A stretch of 64,000 bases of DNA from Chloroflexota bacterium (GTDB lineage: Bacteria > Chloroflexota > UBA5177), in the NCBI GenBank assembly GCA_051002135.1, contig JBPCMQ010000039.1, positions 25,510 through 89,509 on the forward strand, given 5' to 3'. This document shows positions 1,763 to 3,005 of this stretch, piece after piece. The first letter of the stretch is position 1. The number at the start of each line of letters is the position of its first letter. The notes under the pieces were generated by a model. That model had not been told where the DNA came from, did not search any database, and saw only the letters and a program-made list of their open reading frames with translations. Position numbers and translations under genes: made by a program.

Positions 1763-2839
1763 CTACTGCCCCGCGAGCGCGGCGACGTCCGCCGGCGAGC
1801 GTGCCGGCGCCGATCCGCAGACCGGGCAGTCCGGATCGCGACGCAGCCTGAGCTCCATGAATGACGAGCTCAGGGCATCGAACATCAGCAGACGGCCGAC
1901 GAGTGTCTCTCCGATGCCAACGATTAACTTGATCACTTCGTTTGCCTGCAATAGGCCCATTATTCCGGGAAGCACGCCCAGAACTCCCGCTTCGCCTCAG
2001 GTGGGCGCGAGCGACGGTGGTGGTGGCTCTGGATAGACGCAACGGTAACACGGCCCGGCTCCCGCCACGAAAGTCGACACCTGGCCGTCGAAGCTCAGGA
2101 TGCTTGCCGAAACATTGGGCGTGCCCTGTCGCACGCATATCTCATTCAACAGATAGCGGGTATCAAAGTTATCGACGCCGTCGATGACGATGTCGTACCC
2201 CGCGAGGATGTCGTCGGCGTTACTCGCGTCAAGGCGGGTCTCATATCCGACAACCTTGACGTCCGGATTGAGCGCCGCAATTGACTGCCTCGCAGATTCC
2301 ACCTTGGACATCCCGACGCGTTCGGTCGTGTGTATGACCTGGCGTTGTAGATTGCTTTCCTCCACCACATCGGCGTCGACTATGCCAAGTGTTCCCACGC
2401 CCGCCGCCGCCAGATAGAGAGCCGAAGGCGAGCCAAGCCCGCCCACGCCTACGAGGAGAACTTTGGCGTCGAGAAGCTTGAACTGGCCTTCTTCGCCGAC
2501 CTCCGGGATGAGCACGTGGCGGCTGTAACGATGCATCTGGTCGGATGAGAGCGTGCGCGGAATCACAAAGGGCTGTCCAGCATCCTTCCAACCCGTGAAG
2601 CCGCCCCGCAAAGAGCGAACATCCTCGTACCCCATGTCCTGTAAAGTTCTGGCGGCCAGGACCGATCTGGTTCCTCCAGCACAGTACAACAGGACAGGCA
2701 TTCGCTTGTCCGGCACCGCATTTTCAATGCGCAGCTCGAGGTACCCTCGTGGCACGTGGATCGCGCCGGGGATGTGGCCCTCGTCCCATTCGATTTTTTC
2801 GCGCACGTCAATGAGACGCGACGCCTCCGTTTTCCCCAC
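1763..2839 (-). CDS. Rhodanese–ThiF/MoeB E1 fusion (MoeZ-like sulfur-carrier adenylyltransferase/sulfurtransferase). An in-frame TGA at 1997-1999 sits at the conserved active-site Cys position, making it a candidate selenocysteine. The true 5' end probably lies upstream of 2839.
   Basis: Track ORFs 1997..2839 and 1763..1975 are in the same frame, separated by one TGA. The rhodanese active-site loop is CAGGTRS. E1 motifs present: LLVGVGGLGS, the CYRC...CPVCG zinc site, and [11 protein letters not shown][TGA][14 protein letters not shown] aligning with MoeB PTCAEAGV / ThiF NCRTAGV. The rhodanese sequence TIEELTLPTFDELFSAAKRNVEEVSVAQASDD continues in frame upstream to a TAG at 2945-2947. Confidence 0.6.
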
Positions 2840-3005
2840 ATCGTCGGACGCCTGGGCAACGGAAACCTCTTCGACATTCCTTTTAGCAGCGGAAAACAGC
2901 TCGTCAAAGGTGGGCAGGGTCAGTTCCTCGATTGTGCATATGACCTATTGTAGCCAAAGCTGAAAGGGCGGCCTATGCCACCTGTTTTTCGTACCGGCCT
3001 CACTG

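Follow-up and report, generated by a model that had tools for sequence, protein, structure and literature searches.

A UGA in place of the catalytic-cysteine codon of a rhodanese–E1 gene in a Chloroflexota cysO–cysM–mec operon: a probable selenocysteine codon

We analysed 64,000 nucleotides of DNA from a Chloroflexota bacterium (GenBank assembly GCA_051002135.1, contig JBPCMQ010000039.1, positions 25,510 to 89,509 of the forward strand), called here the window and numbered from its first letter. On its minus strand, at 1763–2917, lies a gene for a sulfur-carrier-activating enzyme in which a rhodanese domain is joined to an adenylating E1 domain of the ThiF/MoeB type. The gene contains an in-frame UGA at 1997–1999, at the site of the catalytic cysteine, and this codon is very probably a genuine selenocysteine (Sec) codon. 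An earlier interpretation made from the letters alone (the sequence-only reading) had proposed that a rhodanese–E1 encoded in a CysO operon carries Sec in place of its active-site Cys, and the proposal is supported by the conservation of the codon, by the constraint on a hairpin that follows it and by selB and selD in the same window. The gene most likely encodes a Sec-containing rhodanese–E1 that would activate the adjacent CysO-like carrier for cysteine synthesis.

The gene comprises 384 codons, counting the proposed Sec codon as residue 307, and ends in TAG, as delimited by translation, Pfam and the NCBIfam model NF006444. Its frame is open up to 2944, and translation of 1763–2944 (minus strand) gives one frame with one internal stop. 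The listing of open reading frames (ORFs) has two entries here, 1997..2839 (280 amino acids) and 1763..1975 (70 amino acids), both on the minus strand; as the sequence-only reading had stated, they share one frame and are parted by a single TGA. Solved structures served as the reference for aligning this stop codon with known cysteines, and it aligns with Cys187 of E. coli MoeB (LTCVEAGV), Cys184 of ThiF (NCRTAGV) and Cys202 of Chaetomium Uba4 (CtUba4; SCGEAGI). The first two of these positions had been named correctly from the letters, although the MoeB motif had been given as PTCAEAGV.

For domain and hidden Markov model scoring, Cys was put in place of the stop. The product then shows an N-terminal rhodanese domain (2582–2851, minus strand; Pfam PF00581, 75.8 bits, amino acids 32–121), whose active-site loop reads YCAGGTRS and whose catalytic Cys codon, TGT at 2681–2683, is residue 79 counted from the CTG start described below. 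The ThiF/MoeB adenylation domain (1820–2527, minus strand; PF00899, 278 bits, amino acids 140–375) matches the whole profile (positions 1–238 of 238) and spans the UGA; it has the nucleotide loop GVGGLGS and two zinc motifs, CYRC (2039–2050) and CPVC (1817–1828), the second of which falls 3' of the UGA. The product scores 551.4 bits against a cutoff of 449 with NF006444 (PRK08762, 'MoeB'), a model with an N-terminal rhodanese followed by the E1, over model positions 3–370 of 387. With the MoeZ/MoeZR model NF005902 it reaches 375 bits against a cutoff of 647, its rhodanese being N-terminal; the enzyme would resemble MoeZ in mode of action yet falls outside the MoeZ family. The sequence-only reading had called this domain order inverted, and the Pfam order is as it described, but the arrangement is not new, NF006444 being an existing equivalog for it.

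At the start position of the orthologues the gene has no ATG, GTG or TTG; a CTG (2917–2915) stands where five orthologues have TTG or ATG. GAGGA lies 7 nt 5' of this CTG, and a TACAAT-like −10 box lies about 30 nt 5' of the start in the window and in four of five orthologues (TAGAAT in L210). These features suggest that the E1 probably begins at the CTG, with a short leader.

The homologue set consisted of the 120 closest protein clusters, of which 100 have Cys at the site and 20 are gene calls that stop at the UGA codon. The stopped clusters are 76–80% identical, 280–326 amino acids long (mostly 306) and end ...PPPP(A/S)LAPT. In the DNA fetched for six of them (P0009, P0045, P0048, P0061, P0071 and P0075) the codon is TGA in every case, followed by 76–77 conserved in-frame codons through DP(D/E/S/N)CPVCG. 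The same codon is TGA in the related loci L081–L084 and L209–L211, and a Sec-type homologue of 77% identity is found in an NCBI metagenome-assembled genome from Chloroflexota. A scan of metagenomes with a degenerate DNA pattern in which the site had to be TGA returned at least 120 stretches, each of them an in-frame ThiF-type E1 that has U for the Cys and stays open downstream. These stretches span several subfamilies, the rhodanese being N-terminal in some and C-terminal (the MoeZ order) in others. The same TGA recurs in over 125 contigs that were assembled independently of one another; they come from many samples and represent several subfamilies.

As a Cys-type control set we took 80 species-representative genome loci among the matches listed from a protein-profile search; the ranking of that search favours unbroken matches, and the set says nothing on Sec forms in species-representative genomes. 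Mapping by tblastn gave TGC in 71 cases and TGT in 10, that is, in all 81 aligned codons. The comparison of orthologues that the sequence-only reading had proposed therefore finds both TGA and Cys codons (TGC/TGT) at this site. The nearest full-length Cys relatives (P0003, P0005 and P0008) lie in an HTH_20–E1–Grx/Pyr_redox_2 context and were rejected as orthologues, the different gene context marking them as paralogues. Three Cys-type paralogue loci of 72–76% identity (at approximately 5650–8500 in L206, 5650–8500 in L207 and 1050–3900 in L208) hold a conserved trio of an ArsR-type HTH_20 regulator, the rhodanese–E1 and a glutaredoxin-fused pyridine-nucleotide disulfide oxidoreductase.

The mRNA can form a hairpin 3' of the UGA that resembles a bacterial selenocysteine insertion sequence (SECIS). 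The 7-bp stem drawn in the sequence-only reading, UUCUGGG-CGUGCUU-CCCGGAA (1963–1983), is part of the minimum free energy structure, in which it gains one G·U pair to give a stem GUUCUGGG/CCCGGAAU of 8 bp with the 7-nt loop CGUGCUU (1962–1984, minus strand; −9.8 kcal/mol). The spacer between UGA and stem is 13 nt (12 counting the G·U pair), and the distance from the first base of the UGA to the start of the loop is 23 nt. Bacterial SECIS elements are hairpins that start at least about 11 nt after the UGA, with the apical loop 16–37 nt from the UGA and G or U in the loop. The E1 hairpin has each of these properties, and the loops CGUGCU(U) and AGUUGUG all have GU at positions 2–3.

The main support for the hairpin comes from a comparison of 104 unique Sec forms with 79 unique Cys forms, among the matches listed. 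A stem of at least 6 bp can form in 103 of the 104 Sec forms against 29 of the 79 Cys forms. The Leu codon of the 5' arm is CTG in 103 of 104 Sec forms and in 17 of 79 Cys forms (Fisher 9e-32), and the Val codon that precedes it is GTC or GTT in 101 of 104 and 17 of 79, respectively. The loops of the Sec forms read CGUGCU, CGUGCUU or AGUUGU(G/A). Third-position entropy in the Sec forms is as low as 0.07 bits for this Leu and 0.40 bits for this Val, against 1.6–1.9 bits, close to saturation, at the four-fold sites around them, whereas the Cys forms have 1.31 and 1.08 bits at the same two codons. In addition, one stem pair covaries (C-G 31, G-C 3, U-A 2, U-G 1), with a score that none of 500 column shuffles reached; within the clade of the window three sequences have U-A here and five have C-G, none is mismatched, and the two bases of the pair are synonymous third positions. 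The sequence-only reading had made support by covariation a test of the hairpin, and the outcome is a compensatory change from U-A to C-G together with synonymous sites that are frozen in the TGA forms. Within codons 5–12 after the Cys/Sec codon, 52 of 79 Cys-type genes use CTC for the Leu opposite the hairpin, though CTG is the commoner Leu codon (46 of 79) three codons later, a hint that genes with Cys may tend to avoid the hairpin.

Machinery for Sec is encoded in the same window, where the sequence-only reading had already recognised selB and a selD bearing a UGA. The gene for the selenocysteine-specific elongation factor, selB (46244–48133, plus strand), matches TIGR00475 over its full length with 316.6 bits against a cutoff of 242.25. 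The selenophosphate synthetase gene selD (35650–36693, minus strand) was identified by tblastn with E. coli SelD (E = 6e-76), and its 16th codon is a TGA at 36646–36648, within SAG*AGK. A hairpin 3' of the selD UGA (36602–36620, minus strand), UGGCGCA-CGUGC-UGCGCCA, has a fold z of −2.5 and, as had also been noticed from the letters, shares the CGUGC loop motif with the E1 hairpin. Directly 5' of selD, and in its orientation, lies a DUF1611 gene with N and C domains (36722–37786, minus strand). Ordinary genes such as valS, prfA, prmC, selB, metK, cysM and cysO stop at TGA, and a genome-wide reassignment of UGA was rejected, as no fewer than 10 confident window genes terminate in this way. Both genes with an internal UGA end in TAG (1763–1765 and 35650–35652), while 10 of the 13 other confident window genes end in TGA; this may reflect avoidance of UGA as a terminator in Sec genes, or chance.

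Three other explanations of the UGA have to be weighed. Translation could truly end there, leaving a rhodanese–E1 fragment of 306 residues and a second piece of about 65–70 residues that is translated separately, or the gene could be decaying. A true stop would, however, delete the catalytic residue itself and leave both fragments without it. Gene callers do annotate an ORF of 306 amino acids and another of 64–70 with a weak ThiF match, but a conserved start or ribosome-binding site was not found for the downstream piece, and its ATG and GTG codons encode residues that are conserved in the Cys forms too. The downstream frame, including the CPVC zinc motif, is intact across lineages at about 55–80% protein identity. 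It is also true that TGA is the sole stop one mutation away from TGC or TGT, and that a TGA-only pattern alone is no proof of recoding; yet it is in the TGA forms alone that the hairpin has frozen synonymous sites, and both selB and a Sec-type selD are at hand in the window. We therefore regard termination at this codon as improbable.

It is likewise doubtful, and to our mind scarcely probable, that the UGA is read through with Cys, Trp or some other residue, either by near-cognate suppression or by a Cys-charged tRNA-Sec under selenium scarcity. The presence of selB, and of a SECIS-like hairpin that is canonically spaced from the UGA and has the loop motif of the selD element, points to a dedicated Sec pathway, and most other genes of the window end at TGA. 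In favour of such read-through is that the inserted residue is beyond the reach of sequence analysis, and that neither selA nor tRNA-Sec was found in the 64-kb window. Finally, the idea that the TGA is a mistake of sequencing or assembly, or a nonsense mutation of this strain, is effectively refuted by the same TGA in the more than 125 contigs and in the Sargasso Sea reads of 2005, even though the sole sequence identical to the window, L085 (100% over 11,063 nt, window 1–11063), is from the same population and is no independent check on the base call.

Several observations weigh against a Sec codon at 1997–1999, among them the lack of selA and tRNA-Sec in the 64-kb window and the shared origin of L085. 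As a single sequence, the hairpin is no stabler than its shuffles (z = −1.0, and z = +0.05 for the 50-nt stretch), so that its support rests on the comparative data. The stem core CUGGG/CCNGG is set in part by conserved Leu-Gly…Pro-Gly codons, and the Cys-type relative L206 keeps a 7-bp version of the hairpin; for these reasons the hairpin is necessary yet by itself not diagnostic of Sec. Rfam gave no SECIS family for the E1 hairpin, either in a scan of the window at gathering thresholds or in E-value scans round both UGAs, but the selD element likewise had no match, which makes this negative result uninformative. The metagenome pattern demanded TGA and is hence silent on the absence of TAA and TAG. 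To our knowledge, there is no protein-level evidence for any member of the MoeB-type selenoprotein family, which is discussed below.

Three genes follow the E1 on the minus strand. The first (1453–1728) encodes a sulfur carrier of the CysO/ThiS fold (PF02597), with SAMP1- and MoaD-like matches that are both under their curated cutoffs. Its product ends ...AMAGG-NP, two residues past the Gly-Gly, which would be exposed only after C-terminal trimming, presumably by the adjacent JAMM protease. The second gene (474–1433) is for a pyridoxal phosphate (PLP) enzyme, a cysteine synthase of the CysM/CysK type (PF00291, 237.8 bits); the scores with TIGR01136, TIGR01138 and NF008735 are all under the equivalog cutoffs (298 against 413 for the CysM equivalog), so that its substrate specificity is predicted only. 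The third (82–480) encodes a Mec-like JAMM/Prok-JAB metalloprotease (PF14464, 80.4 bits) with an intact HSHx7SxxD motif, and has a 7-nt overlap with cysM, as in relatives. The order E1–ThiS–PALP–JAB is kept in all close Sec-type loci (L081, L083, L084 and L209–L211). A second Sec-E1 subfamily (GLVPSU[DN]EAGVLGVVPGQ; L096, L101, L170, L184, L193 and L127), about 58% identical to the window E1, sits in CysO–E1(U)–JAB–CysM clusters, and NF006444-like loci of the Cys type lie near CysO in 52, CysM in 39 and JAB in 40 of 80 cases. The largest soil Sec group (GLVPSUSEAG…TYDALGMRFREV) has no neighbours of the CysO, CysM or JAB type on its contigs of 7–15 kb, and Pfam on the neighbours in L204, of this group, gave nothing related to sulfur carriers.

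On the 5' side of the E1 are a conserved ORF of 103 amino acids, a UbiA prenyltransferase gene and metK. The 103-residue ORF (3006–3317, minus strand), which separates the UbiA gene from the E1, matches neither a Pfam nor an NCBIfam model, and by tblastn it is conserved in all eight close Sec-type loci from the protein look-up as well as in L134 and L144. The window also holds two large genes of the type-I phosphodiesterase/nucleotide pyrophosphatase family (42353–44290, minus strand, and 5646–7511, plus strand); the one beside metK is syntenic in relatives.

Whilst the codon, its conservation, the constraint on the hairpin, the operon, selB and selD are observed, we infer the insertion of Sec and every chemical step that would follow. 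Cys184 of ThiF forms an acyl-disulfide. In Uba4, Cys202, which aligns with the UGA, is the crossover-loop cysteine that makes a thioester with Urm1, and this intermediate is then attacked by the rhodanese persulfide (PMC7527816). For decoding in the window gene, SelB with Sec-tRNA would dock on the hairpin at 1962–1984, 12–13 nt past the UGA. The JAMM protease would trim the CysO-like carrier with its GG-NP ending, and the E1 domain would then adenylate it. Next, Sec307, placed in the crossover loop, could attack the acyl-adenylate through its selenolate to give a selenoester, comparable to the thioester of Uba4 Cys202, or might alternatively form an acyl-selenosulfide, by analogy with the acyl-disulfide of ThiF. 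The persulfide of the rhodanese Cys79 would supply the sulfur, freeing the CysO thiocarboxylate, from which CysM would make cysteine, to be released by the JAMM protease. Relative to Cys, Sec would be the better nucleophile and leaving group, and resistant to over-oxidation.

A cysteine pathway of this kind, with CysO, CysM and Mec, was reportedly described for M. tuberculosis by Burns et al. in 2005. In the M. tuberculosis MoeZR/CysO/CysM/Mec system (PMC3227635), as proposed for the window, a rhodanese-bearing E1 puts sulfur on a carrier of the ThiS fold, this carrier supplies a PLP enzyme of the CysM type, and the genes are accompanied by one for a JAMM protease. MoeZR differs from the window E1 in having a C-terminal rhodanese and Cys, where ours has an N-terminal rhodanese and UGA, and the window carrier, unlike M. 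tuberculosis CysO, has two extra residues after its GG. The best match of the window E1 among solved structures is Uba4/MOCS3 (PDB 6yub, E = 2e-63; PMC7527816, PMC6007339), which has Cys and a C-terminal rhodanese and acts in tRNA thiolation or urmylation, in contrast to the Sec, N-terminal rhodanese and cysteine synthesis proposed for the window E1. E. coli ThiF and MoeB share with it the homologous adenylation domain, the two CxxC zinc motifs and the aligned Cys, but lack a rhodanese domain and Sec. The NF006444 (PRK08762) family has the domain order of the window E1 and is known in the Cys type, many members lying in CysO/CysM/JAB clusters; all 80 of the genome members of this type that were sampled have TGC or TGT, where the window gene has TGA and a constrained hairpin.

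The family, the Sec site and the SECIS-like hairpin were already published in 2005, and the window gene is a further member with a different domain order. Under the name 'Molybdopterin biosynthesis MoeB protein', a selenoprotein family of 11 sequences was described from the Sargasso Sea (Zhang, Fomenko & Gladyshev 2005, PMC1088965); it was met again, with 19 sequences, in the Global Ocean Sampling study of 2008 (PMC2398784) and is still listed in reviews of 2022 and 2026 (PMC9312934, PMC13188914). The sequence-only reading was right to mention MoeB-like entries in metagenomic selenoproteome lists, but it knew of no described Sec-containing E1 of this kind, and the 2005 family, which has Sec at the same site, is one. 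In those proteins Sec occupies the identical residue of the ThiF/MoeB domain, in the motif P-x-C-x-E-x-G-V, and Cys homologues are many (PMC1088965). The supplement of the same paper shows the same hairpin, GUCCUGGG-CGUGCU-CCCGGGA, in DNA reading …GTCCTGGGCGTGCTCCCGGGA…. The rhodanese is C-terminal, in the MoeZ order, in the complete marine sequences that we examined, whereas that of the window E1 is N-terminal; and the published proteins are filed under molybdopterin synthesis without operon context, whereas the window E1 belongs to a cysO–cysM–mec operon of a soil-type lineage.

What is new is Sec in the N-terminal-rhodanese form, within a cysO–cysM–mec operon of a Chloroflexota lineage. The papers searched contain no description of Sec in an N-terminal-rhodanese E1, of placement with cysO–cysM–mec or of abundance in soil-type metagenomes, and nothing relevant came up on selenocysteine in connection with CysO or on MoeZ as a selenoprotein. 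No new principle is involved, MoeB being already on the lists of selenoproteome specialists.

On a crude neighbour-joining tree with Fitch reconstruction, rhodanese–E1 enzymes have switched between Cys and Sec about 8 times, a count that is approximate since the tree was built on a core of 164 amino acids only. The repeated switching is likely explained by the conserved codons for GVLGVLPG, which contain the core of a SECIS-like hairpin (CUGGG…CCNGG), suitably spaced from the codon of the catalytic Cys. With the core pre-encoded in this way, a change from TGC to TGA and a few synonymous changes would suffice for Sec. The joint proposition, that cysteine synthesis by the CysO route is selenium-dependent in the Chloroflexota-like lineage and in the subfamily of about 58% identity, and that Cys and Sec have switched repeatedly on a pre-encoded hairpin core, is a tentative one, which we rate a little below an even chance.

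One practical consequence is that public annotation is systematically wrong for these genes: the 20 close Sec-type clusters appear without exception as truncated proteins of 280–326 amino acids, such as a 'hypothetical protein' in NCBI GCA_054928475.1. The natural Sec/Cys pair at the crossover-loop nucleophile of the E1 offers a means to probe the thioester and acyl-disulfide mechanisms of Uba4, MOCS3 and ThiF. If the most likely reading of the window gene holds, a long-catalogued and uncharacterised selenoprotein family would be placed in a concrete pathway, where it activates a sulfur carrier that serves to make cysteine and not molybdopterin, and this placement would imply that some soil bacteria require selenium for primary sulfur assimilation.

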